DNA of 61,091 nt, filler included. It is 5 parts of 5 records of this genome, joined end to end, with 100 filler letters (N's around TTAATTAATTAA, not from the genome) between each part and the next. Parts side by side here need not be neighbours in the genome. Positions count along the whole stretch, not along the records: positions 40,614 to 53,945 come from SRR31147125_12941; 4 more parts are not named here. One strand, written 5' to 3'. Both the position numbers and the translations under genes were made by a program. Below, one piece after another: positions 39,102 to 53,945 of this stretch (position 1 is the stretch's first letter; each line of letters begins with the position of its first letter). Below the pieces are notes generated by a model. The model was not told the DNA's origin and searched no databases. It was given only the letters and a program-made list of their open reading frames with translations.

Positions 39102-40433
39102 TTATAGTATTACCTTCCCTGTTATCGCCTCGTATATAATACTGTTTTTATATTCTAATAATTTAGTTATAATACTGTTCTTTTTGTCTAATATAGTATC
39201 TATTTTCGTAAGTTTCACTTGTAAAAACTCAACAATTTCACGTTGTTGTTTTATCGGAGGTATCGGAACGTCTATATCGCCAACCTGTTCAAAATTTAAA
39301 CTCGCACGGTTTGTACCATCTCTAATTTGAAAAAGTGCATTTTGTCCTATCTTTGATGATAGAACATACTGCAAATATTGGCTATCTACGCTTTCATTTA
39401 AAGGTCTTATAATACATACATGTTGACTAACATTTGCGTGAGTGTCATCTAGATATACTGCGCATCTGCCAAGAGAACCGCCTGTTATATTAAGCAATAC
39501 ATCACCTTTATATACTCTGCTGTTTTTCATACTTTCATCTAAAGATTCGCTTATATATGTTTTTCTTTTTATATCTATTGCTCCTCTTAAAATATTTTGG
39601 CACCTCAAAAACAAAATCCCTTTTTTAGAATAAGCATCCTCTCCTCCACGCGGAGTTTTGCCACCGCCTATTTTACTTGCTATATATCTTATTTTGCTTA
39701 TATTCCAATCGATCGAAATATTGCCAATAAAGTCAGCACCACTCGGTATCGTTTCGTTCCCACTTTTTAATCCTTTGGTCAATATCTTTTGTAAAAAAGA
39801 TTCCCTATACTCCTCTATCTTTTTTATTGTTTGCTTTTGTTTTTTTATAGAATCATCAATTTGTCTATCTATGTTATCCAAATAATCAGCAATGGATTTT
39901 TGTTTTTCTAAGGCAAACATCGGTACTACAAAATCGCTTATCTGAGCAAAAGAAATACCATTTCGGTTAACCCCATCTTTACAGGTGTTTGTATAATTTT
40001 TACAGATGTCAGAAATCAAAACATAATAGAGATACTTATTGTAGACTAACTTTTCATTGCATCTTATGATACATACGTGCTGATTCACATTTGCACTGCA
40101 GTCCATATCAAAAACACATGCCCTGCCAATAGAGCTACCTGTTATGTTAAATAAAATATCACCCTTGCATAATCTACTGCTTTTAAGTGAATGATCTATT
40201 TCTTCCGATATATAAACCGCATTGTCTAAAAACAAGCCGTAATCAAATATATTCTGGCTTCGTAAAAACAATACGCCTTCATTTTGATATACACTCATGC
40301 CACCTTTTGGTGTTTTACCACTGCCTATTTTTTTTGTAATGTGTTTTAATTTTTTAAGTTTGCATCCAAAAGCTACATTCCCAATCCACGCAATCCCACT
40401 ATCGTAGAGTTCGGCCCTTTCAGTTGTCCTCAA
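39102..40433 (-). CDS. hsdS: Type I restriction-modification specificity subunit
   Basis: TRD-helix-TRD-helix layout; DSGIAWIG, KQ..IADYLD, TKGL, PPI..Q.EIV.FL and EAITGK motifs. Confidence 0.93.
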   Translation of the reverse strand: MRTTERAELYDSGIAWIGNVAFGCKLKKLKHITKKIGSGKTPKGGMSVYQNEGVLFLRSQNIFDYGLFLDNAVYISEEIDHSLKSSRLCKGDILFNITGSSIGRACVFDMDCSANVNQHVCIIRCNEKLVYNKYLYYVLISDICKNYTNTCKDGVNRNGISFAQISDFVVPMFALEKQKSIADYLDNIDRQIDDSIKKQKQTIKKIEEYRESFLQKILTKGLKSGNETIPSGADFIGNISIDWNISKIRYIASKIGGGKTPRGGEDAYSKKGILFLRCQNILRGAIDIKRKTYISESLDESMKNSRVYKGDVLLNITGGSLGRCAVYLDDTHANVSQHVCIIRPLNESVDSQYLQYVLSSKIGQNALFQIRDGTNRASLNFEQVGDIDVPIPPIKQQREIVEFLQVKLTKIDTILDKKNSIITKLLEYKNSIIYEAITGKVIL

Positions 40434-40613: not shown

Positions 40614-40658
40614 AAAATTTAATGATTTTTAATCACTTTTTGTCGAAAAGGCATAATA

Positions 40659-42012
40659 TTATGCCAACTTGTTTCTGTTTTCATATATTTTTGTGATTGC
40701 TGCAATAATATCATCCATATCCTTTTTGTTTCCAAGCAGTGTTTGCTGGGAAAACCAGACGGATTCTGTGATCAGTTTTTCATTTTCCGGGCAATCCAGA
40801 TTTTTTCGATACGTTGATAATTGTTCTTGTGAATAGATCTTTTGAAAAGCGGGTGAATCTAGTGTGTCCTCGATAAAAAGTTCTTTATTGAGAGCTGTTC
40901 CATATCCTTTGGAACATGATATGCCCTCAGCCCGCAATGCTTTGATAAAGTTATCACGCGGTATATTGTTAAAATGCTCTTTATTATAGCGCATCGCATA
41001 CAAATGATAAGCGGAACGTGTTGTGCCTTTATAAAATTTTTGTGGATTTATTCCGGGAATCTGTTTCAGGTGATCCGTTAGATAGGATCCGTTTTCATTT
41101 CTTATTCTGGCCTGCTCTTCTGCCCGTTCCATCTGGGAAAGCATAATAGCCGCCTGAAAAGCAGTCATTCTATATTTCGTTCCTAATCTGACATAACCAC
41201 TCACATTTAATTCACTACCGGCAGCACGGCCAAAGTTATGAAAGGAGAAACATCTGTCCATCAGGTCTTTGTCTTCTCCGATAATGGCGCCTCCTTCTCC
41301 ACAATTGATGTTTTTGGAACCCTGAAAACTGAAACAGCCAAGATCGCCAAAATTTCCCAGTTTTTTATTTTCCCACTCTCCCATATGTGCCTGACAGGCA
41401 TCTTCAACAATTTTGAGATTGTGTTTTTTTGCAATGGCCTGGATTTTATCTATATGCACAGGTGCACCCAGAATATCCACCGGCATGATCGCTTTTGTAT
41501 GTTTTGTGATTTTGGCTTCAATTTTTGCGGGATCCAATTGATAGGTCTCGGGATCAACATCGACAAAAACAGGTAATGCGTTACACAAAAAGATGGCATC
41601 AGCAGAGGCAACAAAGGTATAGACAGACACCAGCACTTCATCTCCGGCACCTATACCCAGACTGTATAATGAGGTGTGTAATGCCTGAGTTCCGGATTGT
41701 GTGCCAAGGCAATATTTTGCACCCATTAAATCCGCGAATTTTTCTTCAAATGTGGTAACGGTTTTACCTCCAAAGCGACCCCATTGACCGCTGTTTAAGG
41801 CCTTTAATAACGCGGTTTCATCTTTTTTATCCCATACAGGCCAGGAGGGAAACGATTTTTTTCTGACAGGTTCTCCGCCAAGAATGGCCAACTTTTGAAC
41901 TCGCCTGGAATTTTGCAGTGGAGCTGGAAAAAGCTTTTGATGTGACAGCTGCCATGGTACCAACAGACGCTGTAGCCAAAAATTGCCGTCTGCTAAAGTC
42001 TTTTTGTGTCAT
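40659..42012 (-). CDS. DegT/DnrJ/EryC1/StrS PLP aminotransferase with a Tat signal peptide (frameshift at about 41895)
   Basis: MTQKDFSRRQFLATA twin-arginine leader with a GGAGG RBS; SGTQAL, EDACQAH and FSFQGSKNINCGEGG motifs. Confidence 0.9.
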
Positions 42013-42239
42013 GAAGTGACCTCCCGGATATTGAAAAAAATAATTGCTTTAATGATAATATTTCAAAAATGAGATTATATTAGGATACATAATAAATAAT
42101 TATATGTCAAGAATATTCAGACTTTAAAAAAGGGGAAAAATTTGATAAGAAACATGATTTTTGAAATCTTGGCTCGCACACGACTGTTTCATTTAGTGTA
42201 GCTTAATTCTGGTTTTTTAAATTAAAAATTCAATTTTAC

Positions 42240-42268
42240 TTGACATTTTTCAACAAGTTGAGTAATAT
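42240..42268 (+). promoter_or_regulatory. sigma-70-type promoter for the kor/hdr operon
   Basis: TTGACA-N17-TAATAT. A divergent TTGACA at 42110-42105 would serve degT. Confidence 0.55.
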
Positions 42269-42403
42269 AAAAAGAACAAGTTATCCCTATCTTTTATATG
42301 AAACTCTATTGTTACATAAAATACCATAGAATGTCTTATCCGCAAAACAATTCTTTATTCCTGCGGGAGATGATATACGAGAGAAAATGTAAAGATTAAA
42401 AAG

Positions 42404-42572
42404 TAAGCGATCGGTCCACAGCCTTGAGTCTTGTGACTATCAAGCTCTGTAAATGGCACTGAAATTCGGATGGATTACTTTTAAAAGAATGAAAAGAGTC
42501 GGAACTGGTGATTAGAGCCGGGCTGCGTTATCTGTCAGATCAATGATAGGTTTAGTGGACCGGCTTTTTTTG
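42404..42572 (+). ncRNA. Candidate structured 5' leader RNA or attenuator (unassigned family)
   Basis: TCGGTCCAC/GTGGACCGG closing stem, internal hairpins, and an alternative AGAGCCGG/CCGGCTTT stem followed by T7. Confidence 0.5.
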
Positions 42573-42597
42573 TTTCTATTAATAATTGGAGATAGAG

Positions 42598-42882
42598 ATG
42601 AAATTTTGGCGAAAACCTTTTGATGCCGATACTATTAAAATTCCACATGGAGAATTACACATCATTAAAGATAGATGTAAAGGGTGTGGGTTTTGTGTCA
42701 CCTATTGTCCGAAAAGTGTTCTGGAAATGTCCGATGAATTTAACAGCAAGGGGTATCATCCTCCCAGGATTATTGATGAAAATCAGTGTGTTAATTGTGA
42801 CCTGTGCGAAATGATTTGTCCTGAATTTGCAATTTTTAGCATAAGAAAAGAAGAACCGGACACACAAAATGTGGAGTTGTAA
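42598..42882 (+). CDS. korD: 2-oxoacid:ferredoxin oxidoreductase delta subunit (2x[4Fe-4S])
   Basis: CKGCGFCVTYCP, NSKGYHPP and CVNCDLCEMICPEFAI motifs. Confidence 0.9.
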   Translation: MKFWRKPFDADTIKIPHGELHIIKDRCKGCGFCVTYCPKSVLEMSDEFNSKGYHPPRIIDENQCVNCDLCEMICPEFAIFSIRKEEPDTQNVEL

Positions 42883-42884
42883 AC

Positions 42885-44054
42885 ATGGAGCAAAAATTGA
42901 CAGCAGATCCCATTAACGTTTTAGAGGGAGCTCATTTTTTTGATGGGGATACAGCTTGTGCTGAAGGTGCCATAGCAGCCGGTTGTCGATTTTTTGCCGG
43001 TTATCCCATCACTCCATCAACAGAGGCTGCAGAACGAATCTCCCAACGGTTTCCACAAGTAGGGGGTATGTTTATACAGATGGAGGATGAACTTGCCTCT
43101 ATGGCTGCTCTTGTTGGCGCTTCCTGGGGTGGAGCTAAAACAATGACTGTCACGTCCGGCCCGGGTTTCTCCCTTATGATGGAGAATATTGGACTTGGTG
43201 TTATGATGGAAACGCCGTGTGTGGTCGTGAATGTACAGCGGGGAGGACCTTCCACCGGTTTACCAACAATGGTTGGCCAGTCCGATGTTATGCAGGCACG
43301 ATGGGGATCTCACGGGGATTATGAAATTATCGCCCTTTCTCCGAATTCGCCTCAGGAGGCCTTTGATTTTACCATCAAGGCTTTTAATTTGGCAGAAAAA
43401 TACAGAGTACCTGTTTTAATATTAATGGATGAATGCGTAGGCCATATGACAGAACGAGTGCTGGTTCCTTCTGCGGATTATATTGAACTTTATCCAAGAC
43501 GATATACAAAACTTCCCCCTGGTGAGTATTGGCCATACGTCCCGAGCGAGGATCTTATTCCGGATATGGTGAAAGCCGGCGAAGGCTATCGAATCCACAC
43601 CACAGGTCTGACCCATGATGAGCGAGGATATCCTCTCATGAGTGTGGATGCACAGGCCAAATTGGTAAAACGATTGGTAGATAAGATAAGTAAAAACAAA
43701 GATGATATAATAGATATTGAAGAGAGGAATATAAAAGGAGCAGATGTCATTGTCGTGGCTTATGGTATTACTTCCAGAGTTTGTCAGCCGGCCATAGAAA
43801 AGGCAAACAAAAAAGGTGTTAAAACCGGGTTTTTAAAATTGAATACGATCTGGCCGTTTCCTGAAGCGCGTATTCGGGAATTGGCATTTTCGGTTCAGAC
43901 TTTTGTGGTACCAGAAATAAACCTGGGGCAACTCGCTCTGGAAGTGGAGCGTTGTGCGGCAGGACAGGCAAAGATTTTAAAAGTCTCTCATGCAGGCGGT
44001 TCCGTTCATGACCCTGAAAACATATTTAACATGATTATGGAGGGCGTCAAGTGA
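42885..44054 (+). CDS. korA: 2-oxoacid:ferredoxin oxidoreductase alpha subunit
   Basis: FAGYPITPSTE, QMEDE, TSGPGFSLM and QRGGPSTGLPT motifs. Confidence 0.95.
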   Translation: MEQKLTADPINVLEGAHFFDGDTACAEGAIAAGCRFFAGYPITPSTEAAERISQRFPQVGGMFIQMEDELASMAALVGASWGGAKTMTVTSGPGFSLMMENIGLGVMMETPCVVVNVQRGGPSTGLPTMVGQSDVMQARWGSHGDYEIIALSPNSPQEAFDFTIKAFNLAEKYRVPVLILMDECVGHMTERVLVPSADYIELYPRRYTKLPPGEYWPYVPSEDLIPDMVKAGEGYRIHTTGLTHDERGYPLMSVDAQAKLVKRLVDKISKNKDDIIDIEERNIKGADVIVVAYGITSRVCQPAIEKANKKGVKTGFLKLNTIWPFPEARIRELAFSVQTFVVPEINLGQLALEVERCAAGQAKILKVSHAGGSVHDPENIFNMIMEGVK

Positions 44055-44925
44055 AAGAAATGCCAAAACATGAAGAACACCCAATGGAAGCCTTACTACG
44101 TATGGATAGAATTCCGCATATTTGGTGCTCAACCTGCGGGATTGGTACGGCTGTTTCCTGTTTTATCGATGGTTTGCGGAAAAGTAATCTGGAGTCAAAA
44201 GATGTGGCTGTCGTATCCGGTATAGGGTGTACAGGTCGAGTTGCTGGTTATCTGTTTTTAGATTCATTTCATACAACCCATGGTAGAGCATTACCTTTTG
44301 CAACGGGTTTACATCTTTCAAATCCGGAATTGAAAGTAGTTGTTTTTAGCGGTGATGGCGATTTGATTTCCATTGGTGGGAACCACTTTATTCACTCGGC
44401 TCGTCGTAATATGAACCTCACGATTATTTGTGTTAATAATTTTAACTATGCCATGACCGGCGGCCAATTAGCACCCACAACTCCCAGTCTGGCATTGAGT
44501 TCCACATCTCCGTATGGAAACTTTGAGCATCCCTTTAATCTACCCTTATTAGCCGCGTCAAGCGGCGCTGTTTATGTCGCACGATGGACATCTTTACATA
44601 TCCGACGTTTGAGCAAATCGATCACTGAGGCTTTGCAAAAAAAGGATTTTCATTCATTGAAGTCATATGTCCCTGCTCAACTCTTTATGCCCGCAGGAAT
44701 AAACTTGGTTCTGGTCTCGATTTGATGAAATTTTATCATGATAATAGTGAAATCAGGCATGGTGCGGACCCAAAAGACCTGGATATCGAATTTCAAAAGA
44801 AAATTATCGTCGGTAAATTTATTGATATTGAAAAACCAACTTTTCTGGACATGTATAACAACAGAATGCAGCATGTGCTGGGCGAAAAGTATCATCTTTA
44901 TGGCAGCAAAGAGGAAAAAAGGTGA
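44051..44925 (+). CDS. korB: 2-oxoacid:ferredoxin oxidoreductase beta subunit (frameshift at about 44640)
   Basis: WCSTCG, SGIGC, HTTHGRA, GDGD and GGNH motifs. It continues KKGFSFIEVICPC after a lost A. Confidence 0.92.
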
Positions 44926-45139
44926 CACCAAAAGTTCCCGAACCTGAAGCTGTGTCGTCTTGATAGTGCATGGAAAAGTAATATTATCCTTTGATAACGC
45001 AAAAGGTTTTGTTTAATAAACCAGAGTACGAGATTGCTTCTCTAATAGATGTGAATCATGAAATAGTTACTATATGAGTGGGTTTTTATGTGTCATAATA
45101 TAATAATTTTAATAAATTAAACTATGACAAGGATGGATT

Positions 45140-45709
45140 ATGAGCAGGACAGAAATCCGTGTTTCCGGATTCGGCGGTCAGGGAATCATTCTAAGTGGCC
45201 GAATAATAGGTATGGCCGCAGCCATTTATGAGAGTAAGCAGGCAACATTTAATCAAAGTTATGGTCCCGAAGCCCGCGGAAGTGCTTGCAGTGCACAGGT
45301 TGTTGTGTCTGATGAAATGATCCATTACCCCTATGTATCAAAAGTGGATATCCTTCTGGCCATGTCTCAGGAGGCTTGTACGAAATTTGCGCCGGAACTC
45401 GTGACAGGCGGTTTACTTCTTTTGGAAAAGGATCTTGTCAAAATGCAGAACGTACCGGAACATCTTGTCTGTTATGCTATACCTGCTACTCGCATAGCGG
45501 AAGATTTAGGAAGAAAGATTATTGCCAATATCGTCATGCTTGGATTTTTTACATCCATGGCAGATCTGTTTAAATTGGAATCCATGCATCAGGCCATGCT
45601 TTCATGCGTACCCAAGGGAACCGAGGAATTAAATTTAAATGCCTTTAATGCAGGTTATGAGTATGGACAAAAACTAAAAAAATCCTCCCCGGTAGAAAAG
45701 GTTGGGTAA
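45140..45709 (+). CDS. korC: 2-oxoacid:ferredoxin oxidoreductase gamma subunit
   Basis: SGFGGQG, QSYGPEARGSA and ANIVMLG motifs. Confidence 0.93.
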   Translation: MSRTEIRVSGFGGQGIILSGRIIGMAAAIYESKQATFNQSYGPEARGSACSAQVVVSDEMIHYPYVSKVDILLAMSQEACTKFAPELVTGGLLLLEKDLVKMQNVPEHLVCYAIPATRIAEDLGRKIIANIVMLGFFTSMADLFKLESMHQAMLSCVPKGTEELNLNAFNAGYEYGQKLKKSSPVEKVG

Positions 45710-45715
45710 AGGATT

Positions 45716-46174
45716 ATGACAGAAATTAATTTTGATTTTAAAGATATACTGGATAAGGTTATAGGTGGGAACGGTCACAGTTACTGTTTTCAATGTGGCG
45801 CTTGCGTGGGAGACTGTCCGGCTGCCCGTTATTCAGAGAGATTTAATCCGCGTCTCATCATGCATATGGCTATATTAGGCCAACACGATGCGCTTTTAGC
45901 AGAGGATTCGGTTATTTGGGAGTGCACCAATTGTTATAATTGTTATGAGCGATGTCCACAGGATGTTCGTCCTGTGGAAGTCATTATGGCACTTAAAAAT
46001 ATTATTGCTTCTCAACATAAAAGTCCTGAAAAAGTGAAAATGATGGTAGCAGCTGTGCTTGATAATGGTCGTACGGTCGTGTTGTCTCCTGCAGTACAGC
46101 GAATCAGGGAAGAATTGGGTTTAAATCCTGTAAAAGAAACAGCGGTTGAAGAATTAAGAAAGATTCTAAAATGA
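45716..46174 (+). CDS. hdrC: Heterodisulfide reductase subunit C
   Basis: CFQCGACVGDCP and IWECTNCYNCYERCPQ motifs. Confidence 0.9.
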   Translation: MTEINFDFKDILDKVIGGNGHSYCFQCGACVGDCPAARYSERFNPRLIMHMAILGQHDALLAEDSVIWECTNCYNCYERCPQDVRPVEVIMALKNIIASQHKSPEKVKMMVAAVLDNGRTVVLSPAVQRIREELGLNPVKETAVEELRKILK

Positions 46175-47072
46175 ATCAAAAAAGTGGCGATTATATCCCC
46201 TTTTGGGGTTGTATGATATCGTTAAAATATCCCCAGTTTGAAGCAGCTATACGCAAAACTGTTGGCTCATTGGGTATGAATTTGATTGATGTAGATGGTT
46301 TTACCTGCTGCCCGGATCCAATCTATTTTAAATCATCTAACAAGCTCGATTGGCTTACGATCGCTGCCAGAAATCTCTGTCTTGCGGAAGAAAAAAGCTG
46401 GATATCATAACCATGTGCAGTGGATGTACTGCTACATTATCGGAGGCCCGACATTTATTACAACATGATTCGGCACTTTTGACAGAAATAAATAAAAGAC
46501 TTGGAAAAATTAATAAAGAGTACAAGGGGACGAGTTCTGTCCGGCATATCGTGACTGTTTTGCGGGATGATGTGGGTATGGATCGTATAAGTCAGACTGT
46601 TACTCACCCCCTTGAAGAAATGCGTGTTGCCATTCATTATGGTTGTCATTTGTTGAAACCGAGCAAAATTATGCATGTGGATGATCCGGACAGACCTACT
46701 ATTTTAGAGGATTTAATTGCTGCGACTGGAGCCAGGTCTTTAGAACATGAAGAACGAATTTTGTGCTGTGGCAAAGCCTGTGAGAATCCGGATTTACCTC
46801 CAAAAATGACATTTGATGTTCTTCAATCCATTAAAAAGAGCGAGAGTGATTGTATGTGCCTTATTTGTCCCACATGCTTTGATGAATATGATCTTGGTCA
46901 AATTCGACTGTCACGATTGTTTAAAACAACTTTTAATATCCCTGTTTTATATTATTTTCAGATGCTGGGATTAGCTCAAGGTTATTCAGCTGAAGAACTG
47001 GGATTGTACCGGCATAAAATAAAACCAGATCAATTTGTAGCTAAAATGAAAACAAGCAAATTGATTGTATAA
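46171..47072 (+). CDS. hdrB: Heterodisulfide reductase subunit B (frameshift at about 46393)
   Basis: FWGC, FTCCPDP, AARNL, CSGC, HYGCHLLKP, CCG and CPTCF CCG-domain motifs. Confidence 0.9.
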
Positions 47073-47139
47073 AATATTTCAAAAGAATTAATTAACTTTT
47101 AAATAAAATCATATTTATTCATTCAGGAGGAGCCAAACT

Positions 47140-48228
47140 ATGTCAATTTTAGTTGATGATGGAAAATTGCTGAATTTTACTGAAAGAGTTTTTCAAACTT
47201 TTGAATTGAGCAAAAAAGATGCCCTTATTTGTTCTGATAACCTTTTGTCCGCGGATTTGAGAGGTATTCCATCTCATGGCGTAGCCCGGCTTAAAAGATA
47301 TGTTGATGGCATAAAGAATGGGTTGATTTACCCTTTGAATAAACCTCAAATCGATAGAGAATCCTTTTCCACAGCTACGATCGATGGCAATGCCGGTCTT
47401 GGCCAGGTTGTCGGCTATTTTTCCACCAAATTGGCTATAGAAAAAGCAAAGGAAAGTGGTGTAGGAATTGTGACTGTACATAATAGTAATCACTATGGAA
47501 TAGCCGGCTATTATGCGGAGATGATTTTAAATGAAAATATGCTTGGCATTTCCATGACTAATTCGGCACCTCTGGTTGTACCCACGTTTGGCCGTGAAAT
47601 GATTATCGGCACAAATCCCATTAGTCTGGCAGCTCCGACAAAAAAGAATCGCCCATTTTTTCTTGATATGGCTACGTCTGTTGTACCCAGAGGAAAGTTG
47701 GAAGTTTTTGATCGTGAGGAAAAAGCAATGCCTGAAGGTTGGGCTGTCAATGCAAAAGGTAAAACAACGACAAGCGCCAGTGAGGTTCTGCAAAATATGC
47801 TTAGTCGGCTTGGCGGTGGTATTTTACCCCTGGGTGGAGAAGGAGAGCTTTTCAGGGGATATAAAGGGTATGGAATGTCGCTACTCGTGGACATTCTCTC
47901 AGGAGTGCTTTCAGGTGGGGCTTATGCCAATTTGGTTAATATGAAAAAAGATGGCAAACCTGCACCGGCAAATGTGAGCCATTTTTTCATGGCGCTGAAA
48001 ATTGAAAGTTTTATTGATATAGATACTTTTACCACGAAAATGGATGATCTCATTGACCGTTTAAAAAATTCATCAAAGGCTGAGGGACAGGAGCGGATTT
48101 ATATTCATGGTGAAAAAGAATATGAATTTTATGAAAAACATAAAAAAGAAGGCGTGCCTCTGCAGGAAAAGGTATATGATACACTAAAAGCAATTGCTGA
48201 TGAAAGAGGAATCTCATTTGATATATAA
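47140..48228 (+). CDS. Ldh2/ComC-family NAD(P)-dependent 2-hydroxyacid dehydrogenase
   Basis: DLRGIPSHG, SNHYGIAG, GTNPI, DMATS, LPLGG and YKGYG motifs. Confidence 0.92.
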   Translation: MSILVDDGKLLNFTERVFQTFELSKKDALICSDNLLSADLRGIPSHGVARLKRYVDGIKNGLIYPLNKPQIDRESFSTATIDGNAGLGQVVGYFSTKLAIEKAKESGVGIVTVHNSNHYGIAGYYAEMILNENMLGISMTNSAPLVVPTFGREMIIGTNPISLAAPTKKNRPFFLDMATSVVPRGKLEVFDREEKAMPEGWAVNAKGKTTTSASEVLQNMLSRLGGGILPLGGEGELFRGYKGYGMSLLVDILSGVLSGGAYANLVNMKKDGKPAPANVSHFFMALKIESFIDIDTFTTKMDDLIDRLKNSSKAEGQERIYIHGEKEYEFYEKHKKEGVPLQEKVYDTLKAIADERGISFDI

Positions 48229-48310
48229 CATTTTGATCTATGCTCTGTAAATGAGCAGGAAAAGCCATTGATATAAACGATAAAGGAACATCTGTTTAAT
48301 TGATTTGTAT

Positions 48311-48350
48311 TTAGGCCATCCATCAAAATGTTGGATGGCCTGAAGCTTTT
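48311..48350 (+). terminator. Hairpin, probable terminator or processing site after ldh2
   Basis: TTAGGCCATCCA...TGGATGGCCTGA followed by AGCTTTT. Confidence 0.65.
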
Positions 48351-48397
48351 ATAATTTTGATGCTCATTTTTAGAGTTTCAATTATCAGAGTATTCAA

Positions 48398-48760
48398 ATG
48401 AAACCCATTATACAAAAGACAAGTTTTGGCTCTATTACCATTGCCAAAAGTGTATATGAGCATGATGTGATTATTCGTCTGAATGGTAAAGTGGAAAAAC
48501 GGAAGAAAAAGTTATCAAAAAATATCTATGGAACATCTCATGTGATTTCGTTAGATGAAGCCAAATATGTTTATGAAAAAGGTGCGAAAAAACTCATTAT
48601 AGGGACAGGACAGTCCGGTATGGTCAAACTCTCCGATGAGGGAGCTGACTATTTTAAACGAAAAAAATGTCAGGTACAACTACTTCCAACACGAGATGCA
48701 ATGAACGCCTGGAATGAAGCTCAAGGTGACATTAATGCCTTGTTTCATGTTACGTGTTAA
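48398..48760 (+). CDS. Mth938/DUF498-like protein
   Basis: FGSITI, YGTSH, IIGTGQSG and ALFHVTC motifs. Confidence 0.88.
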   Translation: MKPIIQKTSFGSITIAKSVYEHDVIIRLNGKVEKRKKKLSKNIYGTSHVISLDEAKYVYEKGAKKLIIGTGQSGMVKLSDEGADYFKRKKCQVQLLPTRDAMNAWNEAQGDINALFHVTC

Positions 48761-48808
48761 GATAATGAGCGCTTTTGTGTAACCTGTTTTCAAAAAAAGG
48801 AGGCCTTC

Positions 48809-51800
48809 ATTATTAAGTCAAAAGAAGAAAAAGGTGTCCTCGTATTAGGTGGTGGAATCGCAGGTATTCAGGCAGCACTGGATTTAGCTAACTCTCAGGT
48901 TAAAGTTTATCTGGTTGAAAAATCGCCGAGTTTAGGCGGACGAATGGCCCAGCTGGATAAAACTTTTCCGACAATGGATTGTGCTATATGAATCCTGGGT
49001 CCGAAGATGATGGATGTCGGTCGACATCCAAACATTGAGCTTTTCACTCACTCGGAATTAAAAGGACTTGATGGTCGTGCAGGAGATTTTATCGCAACCG
49101 TGCTTCGCCATCCCGGTTATGTCGATGAATCTCTTGCACCGGATGTGGAGATTGTGCCGCAAACTGTCCAAAAGTTGTGCCTAATGAGTTCGATTGTGGC
49201 CTTGGGGCACGCAAGGCCATCTATCGCCCCTTTGCCCAGGCTGTCCCCAATGTTTATGTGCGAGATCTTGAAACCTGTATTAATAAAAAGTTCAAGACGA
49301 TCCGTTGCCACCATTGTGAAAAAGCATGTCTCCAAAAAGCGATTAATTATGATATGGCTCCCAGGGAATTTCAAATCCCGGTTGGTGCTGTTATCGTCGC
49401 TATTGGCGCTGATGTTTATGACCCGTATGAAATGAAGTCATATGGATACAGTGTATCCCCAAATATCCTCACAGGTCTCGAGTTTGAACGCCTCTTAAAT
49501 GCATCCGGTCCTACCAAAGGAAAAATTCTTCGACCTTCAGATAAAAAAAGCCCGAAAAAAATCGCATTTGTTCAGTGTGTCGGTGTCAGAGGAGAGAACG
49601 ATCGGCAGTATTGTTCGCGTTTTTGTTGCATGAATTCCGTAAAAGACGCGTTGCTGGTAAAGGACCATCTGCCTGAAATCGAAAAGATGACCATATTTTA
49701 TTCAGATATAAGATGTTTTGGTAAGGGATACGAATCATTATATGTCCGGTCATTAGAACGTCCGGAAATAGATTATGTGCGTGGCAAGCCATCAAAAATT
49801 ACTGAATGCCCGGATAGCGGTGATTTAATCATATATGTGGAGAACACACTAACTGGCCGTCCTGAAAAAGTTCAGGTTAATATGGTCGTTTTGGCATCTG
49901 CTGCCGTACCACATGCTTCAGGAAAACAGTTAGCTGAAATTCTCGGAGCTGAACTTGACCATAGTGGGTTTTTTGCCAGTAAAAATGGGTCATCAGAACT
50001 ATTATCCAGTACTCGTGAAGGTGTTTATCTTTGTGGCTGTGCCAAAGGCCCTGAGGATATTCCGGAATCAGTTGCGCAGGGATCGGGTGCTGCTGCCCTG
50101 GCTGAAAAATTCGTTCAGGATAACCGACTCCCGGTAATCGAGGATGAAATATTACAGGTAAATACAGATGGACCTCCGCGAATTGGTGTTTTTCTATGCC
50201 ATTGTGGCATTAATATCGCTGGTGTCCTGGATATTTCACGAATTCAGGATTATGTAAAAACCTTACCCGGTGTTGTCCATGTTCAAAACGATCTTTTTCT
50301 GTGCTCAGATGGGAGCCAAAAAGAATTACAGCAAAAAATTGGTGAAAAAAAGTTGAACCGGGTTATAGCTGCCGCTTGTACACCCCGCACACATGAACCA
50401 ATCTTTCAGGAAACCTGTTCCCGGGTTGGATTAAATCCATATCTTTTCGAAATGGCGAATGTGAGAGATCAATGTTCATGGGTGCATTCTCTTGAACCGG
50501 AACTGGCAACAAAAGAGCCATGGATCAGATCAGAATGGCTGTCTCCCGATCCTCCTGGTTGCAACCATTACCGAAAAAAGAGATTAAGGTGGAACAGGCG
50601 GTCCTGGTTGTTGGCGGTGGAATGGCAGGCATTCAGAGTGCTTTGAGTTTGGATGCTCAGGGCATACCTGTTTATCTTGTGGAAAAGGAAGCACAGCCTG
50701 GCGGGCGGATGCGAATGCTGGAAACCGTTGTCCCCGATAACAAGCAGGCCAATATCATTCTGAATGAAAAATTGGCTGAATTAAAGAAAACGAATGTTCA
50801 TATATATCTTAATACGGATGTGACGAAAATAAGTGGTTACATAGGTAACTTTGAGGTTGAAACAACAAAAGCATCCTTTAAAGTTGGCGCCATCATCCTG
50901 GCATTTGGTGCAGATGTTTACAAGCCAACAGGTGAATTTCAATATGGCAGAATGAAAAACGTGCTTACCAATTATGAGCTGGAAGAACTTTTTGCTAAAT
51001 CAGCTACGTTGGCAATAGATAATAAGCCAGTAGAAAAAGTTGCCTTTATCCAATGTGTCGGCTCGCGAGATCCGGAACGTCATTCGCATTGTTCCCGTAT
51101 ATGTTGTGATGTCACTGTCAAACAAGCTACAACTCTTGTTCAACAGGGGAAACATGTAACTGTATTTTATCGCGATATGCGTACGGTCGGTCACGGTGCT
51201 GAAGAAATGTACCGCCAGGCACGAGGATTAGGGGTTCGCTTTATTCGTTGCCCGGATGATAAAAAACCAGTTGTAAAAAAGTCCCGGGACAGGTGCATCA
51301 TAAGTGTTCATGATGCTATGCTTGGCGGGAAAGTGGAAATGAATGTAGATGCGGTCATTCTGGCAACCGGTATGATTCCATCTGCAACACAAATGGAAAA
51401 GTTTAAGGAATTGCTCAAGATTACCCATAGCCCGGATGGTTTTTTGATGGAACGTCATCCAAAGCTGGGTCCTGTAGAAACCTTTGTAGATGGGGTTTTT
51501 GCCTGTGGATGTGTACAAAGCCCTCAGGGTATTGGTGACTCTATGGCGCAAGCCAATGCCGCGGCAGCCAAAGCGGCACTGTTGGTGAGCCGGGATACTA
51601 TTGATATTTCACCAACGACCTGTGTGGTTAACGAAGAAAAGTGTCGTGGCTGTGGATATTGTGTGTCAATTTGCGAATTTCATGCTCCGGAACTCATTGA
51701 AAAGGGCGATGGTGTTTTCGTCGCCACTATAAATGAAGCCATGTGCAAAGGATGCGGTACCTGTGCTGCCTGGTGCCCAACAGATGCCATCATCGCCAAA

Positions 51801-51881
51801 CATTTTACAGACAGACAAATCGAATCCATGCTGGATGCCATGCTGACAGGTACGGTAACAGTGGGGCTTGAGGTGGATTGA
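48809..51881 (+). CDS. hdrA: Large tandem heterodisulfide reductase subunit A, selenocysteine-containing (UGA 48989-48991; frameshifts at about 49136 and 50512)
   Basis: [18 protein letters not shown]...[29 protein letters not shown]; ferredoxin insert; YCSRFCC; internal [10 protein letters not shown] domain; second GGGMAG FAD domain; C-terminal 2x[4Fe-4S]. Confidence 0.9.
49011..49030 (+). promoter_or_regulatory. Bacterial SECIS-like hairpin
   Basis: TGGATGTC-GGTC-GACATCCA, a perfect 8-bp stem with a G-first loop, 27 nt after the in-frame UGA. Confidence 0.8.
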
Positions 51882-51997
51882 AAATAATTAGCATAAACAA
51901 CCCCTAAATGTTTGTATGTTATCTGCTATGTTAAAACTGGATTATGAGAGAGTTGTCTTTTAGGGATCATTAATAACCTTCATCAAAGGAGAATAAA

Positions 51998-52522
51998 ATG
52001 AAACCCTTAAAAAGTGCGTTTGCAATTCCTGGTTTTATTAGTTTTTTGTTATTGTTATGTCTGGTTTTTAATTGTCAGCAGCCAGCAGGTGTAAGTAAAG
52101 CTGAAGAAGAAATGAAAGCCCTTGTCAGTCAATCTCTGGACGTTTGGAATAAGGGTGATTTTGAGCTTATGAACAAGCTTTTTTCACCCGAGTATGTGCG
52201 CCATGAGGTCGATATCTACGAGGATATTGTGGGTTTGGATTCGTTAAAAAAACACGTTACTTTTTTTAGAACAGCCTATCCAGATTTTAATGTCGTAATG
52301 GATGAATTAATCGCCAAAGAAGATAAAGTAATATTGCGCTGGACATTAACAGGCACAAATACAGGCCCACGTGGCGATGAGCCACCCACTGGAAAAAAGA
52401 TAAAAATTTCCGGTTGCAGTATTTCCCGTGTTGTCGAAGGGAATGTGACAGAGGAATGGGTCTATTATAATCAAGTAGCGGCTCTTATACAACTTGGTTA
52501 TGTAATTTCACCTCCACAGTAA
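51998..52522 (+). CDS. SnoaL-like ester cyclase-fold lipoprotein
   Basis: Signal peptide ending VFNC; WNKGD, AYPDF and W...GTNTG...PPTGKKI motifs. Confidence 0.85.
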   Translation: MKPLKSAFAIPGFISFLLLLCLVFNCQQPAGVSKAEEEMKALVSQSLDVWNKGDFELMNKLFSPEYVRHEVDIYEDIVGLDSLKKHVTFFRTAYPDFNVVMDELIAKEDKVILRWTLTGTNTGPRGDEPPTGKKIKISGCSISRVVEGNVTEEWVYYNQVAALIQLGYVISPPQ

Positions 52523-52594
52523 AAGTAAACGAAAATTAAAGTTGCCTGGACGCGTTGTTGAATGTGTTAATAGAAATGGAAAACATTAGCTAAA

Positions 52595-53041
52595 ATGAAA
52601 AACTTTGAGCCCAAAATAGTTGCTTTTGCCTGTAATTGGTGCAGTTATGCTGGCGCTGATACGGCAGGGGTGAATAGAATACAGTACTCGCCGCATTTCC
52701 GTGTTATTCGGACCATGTGTTCCGGCAGGGTAAAGCCGTCTTTTATTCTAAAGGCTTTTCAAATGGGTGCGGATGGTGTGCTGGTGTCCGGATGCCATTT
52801 TGGTGATTGTCATTATGTTTTTGGTAATCATCGTGCGGTAGAACAATTCGAAAAAGCCAAACAGTTAATCACTATCCTTGGCCTGGAAGAGAAACGGTTG
52901 CGACTGGAATGGATTTCAGCTGCAGAAGGAGGTCGCTGGGCGCAGATCATTAATGAATTTGTCGCAGAAATTACACAACTTGGTCCCAGTCCTTTAAATA
53001 ATAAAAAAGAGGCAGAATTGTGGAAACAAACGGACTCTTGA
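52595..53041 (+). CDS. mvhD: [2Fe-2S] MvhD/FlpD subunit
   Basis: FACNWCSYAGAD, MCSGRV, GCHFGDCHY and WISAAEG motifs. Confidence 0.95.
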   Translation: MKNFEPKIVAFACNWCSYAGADTAGVNRIQYSPHFRVIRTMCSGRVKPSFILKAFQMGADGVLVSGCHFGDCHYVFGNHRAVEQFEKAKQLITILGLEEKRLRLEWISAAEGGRWAQIINEFVAEITQLGPSPLNNKKEAELWKQTDS

Positions 53042-53945
53042 AAGAAACCCATGTCAATGCCTGTATTGAATGTGGCAAGTGTACGGCGAATTGTCCCGTC
53101 TCTCGCTTTAATTCGGGTTTCTCACCACGATTATTATTGAGCCGATTTTTCGAAAACAGTGCCACTCAGTTTCTTCACGACAAGCGTATCTGGAGTTGTT
53201 TGAGCTGCGGTATGTGTCGGGAACGCTGCCCTATGGATGTTAACTTTACAGAGTTTACAAAAATTATTCGTCAAAAGGCTTATAAAACCGGAGAAGAGGC
53301 AGAATGTGCTCATGGCGGAGCTATCCAATCCCTGATGAAAATGATGATATCAGATAACCTGAAACAAAACAGATTGCAATGGCTGACGGATGATCTTAAC
53401 GTAGCAGAAAAAGGAGATGTTGTCTATTTTATCGGTTGTTTACCCTATTTTGATGCTTTTTTTACTGATCTGAAAGTTGAAACTCTTGATATTGCAAAAT
53501 CGACTATACAAATTTTGAACAAGCTTGGCATTACGCCGGTTCTTATGCAGGATGAAAAATGCTGTGGCCATGATTTGTTATGGGCTGGTGACGTTGAGAA
53601 TTTTAAAAAATTGGCACAGGAAAATATAAAGGAATTAAAAAAGGTTAATCCTAAAAAAGTTATTTTTTCGTGTGCGGAATGTTATCGAACATATAAAATG
53701 GATTATGCCTCATTGTTCGGATCGCTGGATTTTGAAGTAACTCATATTTCAGAACTTTTATCAGAAAATATCACGTCGAAAAATATGAAAATGAATCAAA
53801 TTGAAGGAACAGTAACATTTCAGGATCCATGTCGACTGGGACGTCATCTCGGCATTTATGAACAACCACGAGTTATTTTAGATGCTATTTCAGGGCAACA
53901 ATTCAAAGAAATGCCTAAAAGTAAGCAAAATGCCATATGCTGTGG
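53020..53945 (+). CDS. HdrD/GlpC-like Fe-S oxidoreductase (2x[4Fe-4S] plus CCG domains), cut at contig edge
   Basis: CIECGKCTANCP, CLSCGMCRERCP, YFIGC, CCGHD, CAEC and DPCRLGR motifs. Confidence 0.88.

Follow-up and report, generated by a model that had tools for sequence, protein, structure and literature searches.

The 61,091-nt window analysed here, the whole stretch of DNA under study, includes a contig (positions 40614–53945) with a co-oriented cluster of genes for a four-subunit 2-oxoacid oxidoreductase (Kor), for heterodisulfide reductase (Hdr)-type electron-transfer proteins and for an Ldh_2-family 2-hydroxyacid dehydrogenase (Ldh2). We found that kor and hdrCB recur together in related bacteria, while the dehydrogenase gene is kept next to them only in the nearest relatives. 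By analogy with described systems, we lean towards a reading in which an OorDABC-type 2-oxoglutarate oxidoreductase (OGOR) and a bifurcation module resembling BamDEF make up one unit, and ldh2, a DUF498 gene and a SnoaL gene are lineage-specific insertions.

Gene content and intactness of the kor-hdr cluster

Profile searches and gene calls recovered all of the genes named in an original prediction made from the window's sequence alone, in the order it gave, on a single strand and with 6 nt between korC and hdrC; its list had missed the SnoaL-like gene, and HdrA proved to be a tandem of two HdrA units, as BamE is. The oxidoreductase is encoded, on the (+) strand like the rest of the cluster, by korD (42586–42882; delta subunit with two [4Fe-4S] motifs; Fer4 and Fer4_7 domains; OGOR_delta 67.9 bits, cut-off 125), korA (42885–44054; alpha subunit; POR_N 246 bits, PFOR_II; NF006412 570.6 bits, cut-off 411), korB (44051–44963; beta subunit, which binds thiamine pyrophosphate (TPP); TPP_enzyme_C) and korC (45140–45709; gamma subunit; POR 113.7 bits; NF006323 208.9 bits, cut-off 235). 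All four subunits of an OorDABC/KorDABC enzyme are encoded together. The original prediction had started korD at the ATG at 42598. KorA homologs of 70–97% identity bear the source names 2-oxoglutarate or 2-oxoacid oxidoreductase alpha, and 2-oxoglutarate, to which these names and OGOR models scoring below their cut-offs point, is the most likely substrate predicted for Kor.

The Hdr module in the visible part consists of HdrC, HdrB, a tandem HdrA that contains selenocysteine (Sec), MvhD and an HdrD-like protein. The hdrC gene (45716–46174; Fer4_8; TIGR03290 111 bits, cut-off 160) encodes two CX2CX2CX3C motifs, and hdrB (46171–47072) encodes two CCG domains with complete CX(n)CCX(n)CXXC motifs. 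They are followed by hdrA (~48807–51881), by mvhD, which encodes a [2Fe-2S] adaptor of 148 aa without Sec (52595–53041; FlpD 177 bits; aligned to positions 645–774 of the HdrA2 profile), and by a gene of the HdrC-HdrB fusion type (53020–53945; Fer4_8 and two CCG domains). The contig end at 53945 cuts the last of these inside its second CCG motif, after a complete first one; the best NCBIfam match of this gene is TfrB (141.7 bits against a cut-off of 385, over profile positions 131–419 only). None of the NCBIfam Hdr equivalog cut-offs was reached. As had been predicted for the visible part, contig 40614–53945 carries neither hydrogenase nor formate dehydrogenase genes.

The genes are tightly packed, with junctions of 2 nt (korD/korA), −4 nt (korA/korB), 6 nt (korC/hdrC), −4 nt (hdrC/hdrB) and −22 nt (mvhD/hdrD). 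We read the 6-nt and −4-nt junctions as translational coupling, which supports the reading of kor and hdr as one unit. Between korB and korC there is a 176-nt AT-rich gap (44964–45139, GC 0.27), in which the relative described below (run X3) diverges, and a promoter-like site lies in this region at 44960–44987. In all, promoter-like sites numbered 44 with 33.2 expected, which we rated as chance level, and terminator-like sites numbered 11 with 10.3 expected by chance.

Three genes are split by single-base frameshifts in the window's sequence: korB, hdrB and, in two places, hdrA. A contig of 109,139 nt, assembled independently from the probable source run (X1), spans the entire stretch without a substitution and carries one extra base each at 44636 and 44914 in korB, 46390 in hdrB, and 49133 and 50510 in hdrA. 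Four of these five extra bases also occur in the 25,209-nt contig of a relative (run X3, ~91% identical), and two of them in run X2; at the hdrB site the base is present in runs X1, X2 and X3. Four of the sites are A-runs, and 49133 lies in CTCTT. The two hdrB pieces align to residues 1–75 and 75–300 of a relative that is intact at 300 aa (P0143). The presence of the missing bases in independent contigs shows the frameshifts to be assembly errors, and korB, hdrB and hdrA are intact in the organism, with corrected lengths (read through with X at the breaks) of 304 aa, 300 aa and ~1015 aa. Four frameshifts within 9 kb might instead be taken to mean that these are real pseudogenes in a decaying cluster. 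We rejected this as extremely improbable, since the extra bases recur in relatives and in an independent assembly that differs nowhere else; the sequence context of the sites and the intact relative also speak against it. Run X2 is a marine sediment metagenome in which short contigs match parts of korA, hdrC/B, ldh2 and hdrA, some pieces at ~95% identity, which suggests marine sediment as a possible habitat of a close relative.

Conservation of kor with hdr

For KorA, HdrB and Ldh2 we compared the best 120 matches listed per protein, matched by contig. KorA and HdrB accessions were exactly four apart in all five pairs from KSB1 and Calditrichota metagenome-assembled genomes (MBN1347940/36, MDZ7271126/22, MDZ7293946/42, MDZ7338678/74 and MBC7188414/18), which is the spacing expected for korA, korB, korC, hdrC and hdrB in a row. 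Matches to the two proteins also fell on contigs of equal size in six direct cases (23,984, 21,823, 42,380, 17,228, 478,358 and 8,568 nt), and in two further cases via cluster members (21,348 and 21,908 nt). The 23,984-nt contig bears the closest matches to KorA (97%), HdrB (92%) and Ldh2 (96%). Because the accessions are four apart and the contigs are shared, the kor-hdrCB order is conserved, at 66–82% protein identity. The proposal that kor and hdr belong to one unit is thus borne out by their conservation.

The hdr module can also stand without inserted genes. At a distant locus found with Ldh2 (L011), hdrC, hdrB, hdrA, mvhD and hdrD follow one another without interruption, a single long open reading frame (ORF) covering hdrB and hdrA. 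A second HdrA-like motif for flavin adenine dinucleotide (FAD) binding lies ~830 nt past position 53945 in the source contig and likewise in X3, and for this reason we conclude that the cluster continues with another HdrA paralog past the contig end. The electron donor is probably encoded there as well.

A tandem HdrA with selenocysteine

The HdrA protein is made of two units. In unit 1, a thioredoxin reductase (TrxR)-like FAD domain with a C-x-x-Sec pair is combined with an inserted ferredoxin domain. Unit 2 combines the HdrA N-terminal domain with another TrxR-like FAD domain, this one lacking a Cys/Sec pair, and with a 2x[4Fe-4S] domain at the C-terminus. Aligned to solved methanogen HdrA, the first piece corresponds to residues 144–240, the next to 260–562 and then 4–117, and the last to 311–652, with match scores of 392 and 304 bits. 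With the HdrA2 model, which has a cut-off of 1100 bits, the three pieces scored 489, 374 and 148 bits. The protein departs from a single HdrA in domain order (N-terminal domain, TrxR, inserted ferredoxin, C-terminal ferredoxin) and in equivalog score, its domains being in tandem and permuted. The tandem is common: of the best 150 representative proteins, 134 match without a break through the point where unit 1 joins the N-terminal domain of unit 2. At E ≤ 1e-30 there were 1241 matching proteins, and most of the best matches are 940–1530 aa long.

In alignment with 8rvv and 8rvu, the Sec codon (TGA 48989–48991) stands at the second Cys of their DCSMC motif, and an 8-bp hairpin with a GGUC loop is located 19 nt past the codon. 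A GGUC loop is typical of bacterial selenocysteine insertion sequence elements. The folding energy of the hairpin is not exceptional (z −0.56), and Rfam gave zero matches on the contig at E ≤ 1. A TGA at a conserved Cys position with a hairpin downstream is the pattern of a bacterial selenoprotein. From the stop codon at 48761–48763 to the FAD motif there is no in-frame ATG, GTG or TTG; a strong AAGGAGG precedes ATT codons at 48807 and 48810. This suggests either that HdrA starts at a rare ATT codon or that there is another undetected homopolymer error, in the A-run at ~48791. We dropped an attempt to tell the bifurcating from the non-bifurcating FAD by a Lys/Gln residue, as both units keep the Lys of CC-x4-K.

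Ldh2 and the other inserted genes

Between hdrB and hdrA, on the same strand, lies ldh2 (47140–48228), flanked by gaps of 67 nt and 169 nt. The Ldh_2 domain (PF02615, 413.2 bits) spans residues 9–350, a full-length match. Its best solved relative is 1v9n, a 'malate dehydrogenase' (372.5 bits), followed by 3i0p and the sulfolactate dehydrogenase 2x06. The L-sulfolactate dehydrogenase (ComC) equivalog NF040650 scored 289.1 bits, below its cut-off of 500. These archaeal-type malate and L-2-hydroxycarboxylate dehydrogenases share the Ldh_2 fold family with our protein, for which the substrate pair is predicted: oxaloacetate/malate or 2-oxoglutarate/2-hydroxyglutarate are likely. Ldh_2 enzymes are NAD(P)-dependent, and a domain search of Ldh2 found no Fe-S or flavin domain. 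As Ldh2 lacks an electron-transfer domain and depends on NAD(P), any link to its neighbours would be indirect, by way of a common metabolite or the NAD(P)H pool.

Orthologs of Ldh2 with 58–78% identity occur in KSB1, Syntrophus, Planctomycetota and Zixibacteria. Within the best 120 matches listed, the 23,984-nt contig was the one place where Ldh2 accompanied KorA and HdrB, as it also does in the contig of X3; other kor-hdr contigs, such as those of 21,823 and 42,380 nt, were absent among the Ldh2 matches listed. We then viewed 81 Ldh2-anchored loci, at least 80 of them metagenomic, with a single close ortholog (L002, 74%) among the matches listed. It is flanked by a gene with an alpha-amylase domain and by cysE/cysK-type genes, and no kor, hdrA or hdrB was present within 10 kb upstream or 6.5 kb downstream. 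Among all the loci listed, hdrA, hdrB and mvhD were near Ldh2 in one (L011, 48% identity, 3 kb away), which is about chance level, and a matching kor set was near it in one (L077, 45%, 4 kb away, with unrelated genes between). When genome contigs were scanned for Ldh2, the one match was a distant locus from Clostridia (42% identity), in whose genome MvhD was not found. The original prediction had wired Ldh2 directly to Hdr, but a role as a conserved third member was not supported: among the matches listed, Ldh2 is kept with kor and hdr only in the nearest relatives, and its close ortholog stands in an unrelated context. For the predicted kor-hdrCB-ldh2-hdrA synteny, then, the kor-hdrCB part is conserved, but the link to ldh2 is not.

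Two further genes interrupt the hdr module. One (48398–48760) encodes a DUF498/Mth938-domain protein to which no function is assigned (PF04430, 45.5 bits; solved relatives PH1505 and MTH938); an Atlas search with it returned DUF498 clusters only. The other (51998–52522) encodes the SnoaL-like protein (SnoaL, 103.9 bits), which has an N-terminal signal peptide. X3 keeps ldh2 and the DUF498 gene; its hdrA-mvhD interval is 154 nt, compared with 736 nt in the window, where SnoaL lies in between. SnoaL is probably unrelated and inserted at the strain level. The operon can accommodate inserted genes, and at the genus level Ldh2 is a passenger.

A link of LarA to the cluster's Ldh2 was considered and rejected, as a LarA-like gene lies near Ldh2 in 7 of the 81 loci listed, with distant homologs only and not in L002. 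In three loci (L024 10001–15091, L041 10001–14945 and L012 5879–10241), distant Ldh2 homologs of 52–57% identity recur in a cluster with a LarA-like racemase, an HdrD-like Fe-S protein and a GlcD-like FAD oxidase, adjoining phosphoenolpyruvate carboxykinase in L024. This looks like a unit for handling the L and D forms of a 2-hydroxyacid of the malate or lactate type.

Comparison with known systems

The original prediction did not recognise the arrangement as characterised. Biochemically this stands, but the linkage of OGOR and Hdr genes is already in print in two reports (PMC6315080; PMC8542988). In clusters of the reductive tricarboxylic acid (TCA) cycle in tubeworm symbionts and Thioflavicoccus mobilis, korABCD and tfrAB are described as interspersed with flxABCD-hdrABC, and the authors put forward the hypothesis that OGOR is supplied with bifurcated electrons by a complex (Rubin-Blum et al. 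2019, PMC6315080). Going by that description, the likeness lies in a four-subunit OGOR encoded amid hdr genes. The visible part of our cluster differs in having no flxABCD, tfrAB or acl, and in having a tandem Sec-HdrA, a separate MvhD, an HdrD-like gene and the inserted Ldh2, DUF498 and SnoaL genes; its relatives are KSB1/Calditrichota, whereas the organisms described there are Gammaproteobacteria. A TFR-OGOR-Mvh-Hdr cluster is described for Ca. Celaenobacter in the Cloacimonadota (Williams et al. 2021, PMC8542988). It too has OGOR and Hdr in one cluster tied to the TCA cycle, but the Mvh hydrogenase, TFR, fumarase and succinyl-CoA synthetase of its description are not visible in ours. We found no report in the literature of an Ldh2-Kor-Hdr arrangement, or of Kor-Hdr in KSB1.

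The class II benzoyl-CoA reductase of Geobacter metallireducens offers a model for the Hdr module. A preprint describes BamE as a fused HdrA dimer, BamF as an MvhD-like adaptor, BamD as HdrBC/HdrD-like and electron-transferring flavoprotein as the high-potential acceptor (bioRxiv 10.64898/2026.04.10.717634). Compared by description, our cluster likewise has a fused HdrA dimer, an MvhD-like adaptor and an HdrD/HdrBC-type subunit; where BamDEF is described as having a Cys pair near the bifurcating FAD, our HdrA has C-x-x-Sec. According to the same account, BamF is >100 aa longer than our MvhD and carries Sec19, which MvhD does not, and our cluster has an extra HdrC-HdrB pair. The low-potential partner described there is the tungsten enzyme BamBC and here would be Kor. 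Neither aldehyde oxidoreductase (AOR)-type BamBC genes nor NuoEFG-like BamGHI genes were present on the visible contig, and Kor occupies the place of the output enzyme.

HdrA, HdrB, HdrC and MvhD are also recognisable from the methanogen HdrABC-MvhAGD and HdrA2B2C2 complexes (5odc, 8rvu, 7bkb), but here HdrA is duplicated with its domains permuted, and the visible contig has no hydrogenase. The heterodisulfide of coenzymes M and B (CoM-S-S-CoB) is unlikely as the Hdr substrate, because the relatives are non-methanogenic bacteria.

Proposed electron flow and alternative explanations

From these likenesses we infer a physical complex, a direction of electron flow, an acceptor and substrates. Electrons would pass from a donor module outside the visible contig through the [2Fe-2S] cluster of MvhD to the FAD that lies next to Cys-x-x-Sec in HdrA unit 1, where the electron pair would be split. 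The low-potential electron would travel over the inserted ferredoxin domain to KorD/KorB, directly or via free ferredoxin, and drive the conversion of succinyl-CoA and CO2 to 2-oxoglutarate. The high-potential electron would go to HdrC/HdrB or HdrD, ending at the non-cubane clusters of HdrB or HdrD, and from there to a disulfide or other high-potential acceptor. In the reverse mode, electrons from the oxidation of 2-oxoglutarate would be confurcated. Ldh2 would share with this Kor-Hdr module at most a metabolite or the NAD(P)H pool.

Several points weigh against this scheme. The coupling of Kor to Hdr is a proposal drawn from gene clusters, and the visible contig stops short of the donor module and the remaining operon genes. 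At a minimum, the relatives behind the 23,984-nt contig and X3 retain Ldh2 and DUF498, so that a local functional role is possible; the base composition of the two genes is like that of their neighbours, so that they are not obviously a recent import, and there is no convincing terminator between ldh2 and the hdr genes. The absence of Ldh2 elsewhere rests on contig sizes and the best-120 lists, the contigs themselves being unread, and a single close ortholog was viewed in its genomic context. Finally, the scheme does not account for HdrCB and an HdrD-like protein side by side.

Alternatively, as originally predicted, Ldh2, Kor and Hdr might form one pathway leading reversibly from 2-hydroxyacid through 2-oxoacid to acyl-CoA, with the reducing equivalents handled directly by Hdr, for example by confurcating the NAD(P)H supplied by Ldh2 and the ferredoxin supplied by Kor. 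The position of ldh2 inside the hdr genes, its short gaps with no clear terminator and its retention in two relatives fit such a pathway, as do the annotations of its subfamily as L-2-hydroxycarboxylate or malate dehydrogenases, for which the products could include 2-oxoglutarate and oxaloacetate. At the distant locus L011, moreover, Ldh2 and a LarA-like gene lie 3 kb from an hdr module. We nevertheless consider one pathway quite improbable, given the chance-level rate of hdr genes near Ldh2, the amylase, cysE and cysK-type surroundings of its close ortholog, and the other kor-hdr contigs, such as those of 21,823 and 42,380 nt, missing among its listed matches; the protein itself has no domain to pass electrons on, and the same operon tolerates an unrelated gene for a secreted SnoaL protein. 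Kor and Hdr might, on the other hand, be separate enzymes that share an operon for co-regulation and have only the ferredoxin pool in common, Kor being an ordinary catabolic or TCA-cycle OGOR and Hdr a ferredoxin-linked disulfide reductase with no assigned substrate. Both enzyme types are generally known to use ferredoxin, KorD is the usual ferredoxin-type exit domain, the contig encodes no Kor-Hdr fusion protein, and the AT-rich gap with its promoter-like site falls inside kor. The strictly conserved gene order and the 6-nt korC-hdrC junction argue against this, as does BamDEF, which is described as hard-wired to its low-potential output enzyme, and we regard separate enzymes as unlikely.

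That same hard-wiring allows a bolder reading, in which the module of Sec-HdrA, MvhD and HdrD would dock on KorDABC as BamDEF does on BamBC and deliver electrons straight to the TPP site without free ferredoxin, with Ldh2 and DUF498 tuning the 2-oxoacid or draining it as 2-hydroxyacid. We offer it as a tentative analogy and consider it unlikely. If true, it would make 2-oxoglutarate synthesis feasible from mild donors, and the operon would be a self-contained CO2-fixing and redox-balancing unit. The explanation we prefer is the less specific one: an OGOR and a BamDEF-like module would work as a unit into which other genes have been inserted.

Other parts of the window

The five contigs are joined by four linkers, each N44-TTAATTAATTAA-N44, and the DNA beyond 54046 is unrelated to the contig of the cluster. 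In order, their GC contents are 0.32, 0.29, 0.34, 0.41 and 0.39, with 0.41 for the cluster contig. The first three (1–40513) encode FliD/flagellar, chemotaxis receptor and phosphotransferase system (PTS) regulator proteins, and they and the cluster contig may come from different organisms in a mixed bin. At the end of the neighbouring contig lies an HsdS gene (39102–40433), for the specificity subunit of a type I restriction-modification system, and upstream of the cluster, on the opposite strand, lies a DegT-type aminotransferase gene.

Significance of the kor-hdr operon

It has long been asked what is reduced by Hdr-type bifurcating modules outside the methanogens, and a second question is how anaerobes obtain electrons of low enough potential for 2-oxoglutarate synthase. 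Because the pairing of Kor with Hdr has already been proposed in print, the increment from this cluster is modest. It adds an intact, Sec-bearing example and evidence that the operon tolerates inserted Ldh2, DUF498 and SnoaL genes, and it cautions that passengers of an operon should not be taken for members of a pathway without a synteny check. For both questions, the conserved operon, with its tandem HdrA resembling BamE, offers a concrete complex to purify.

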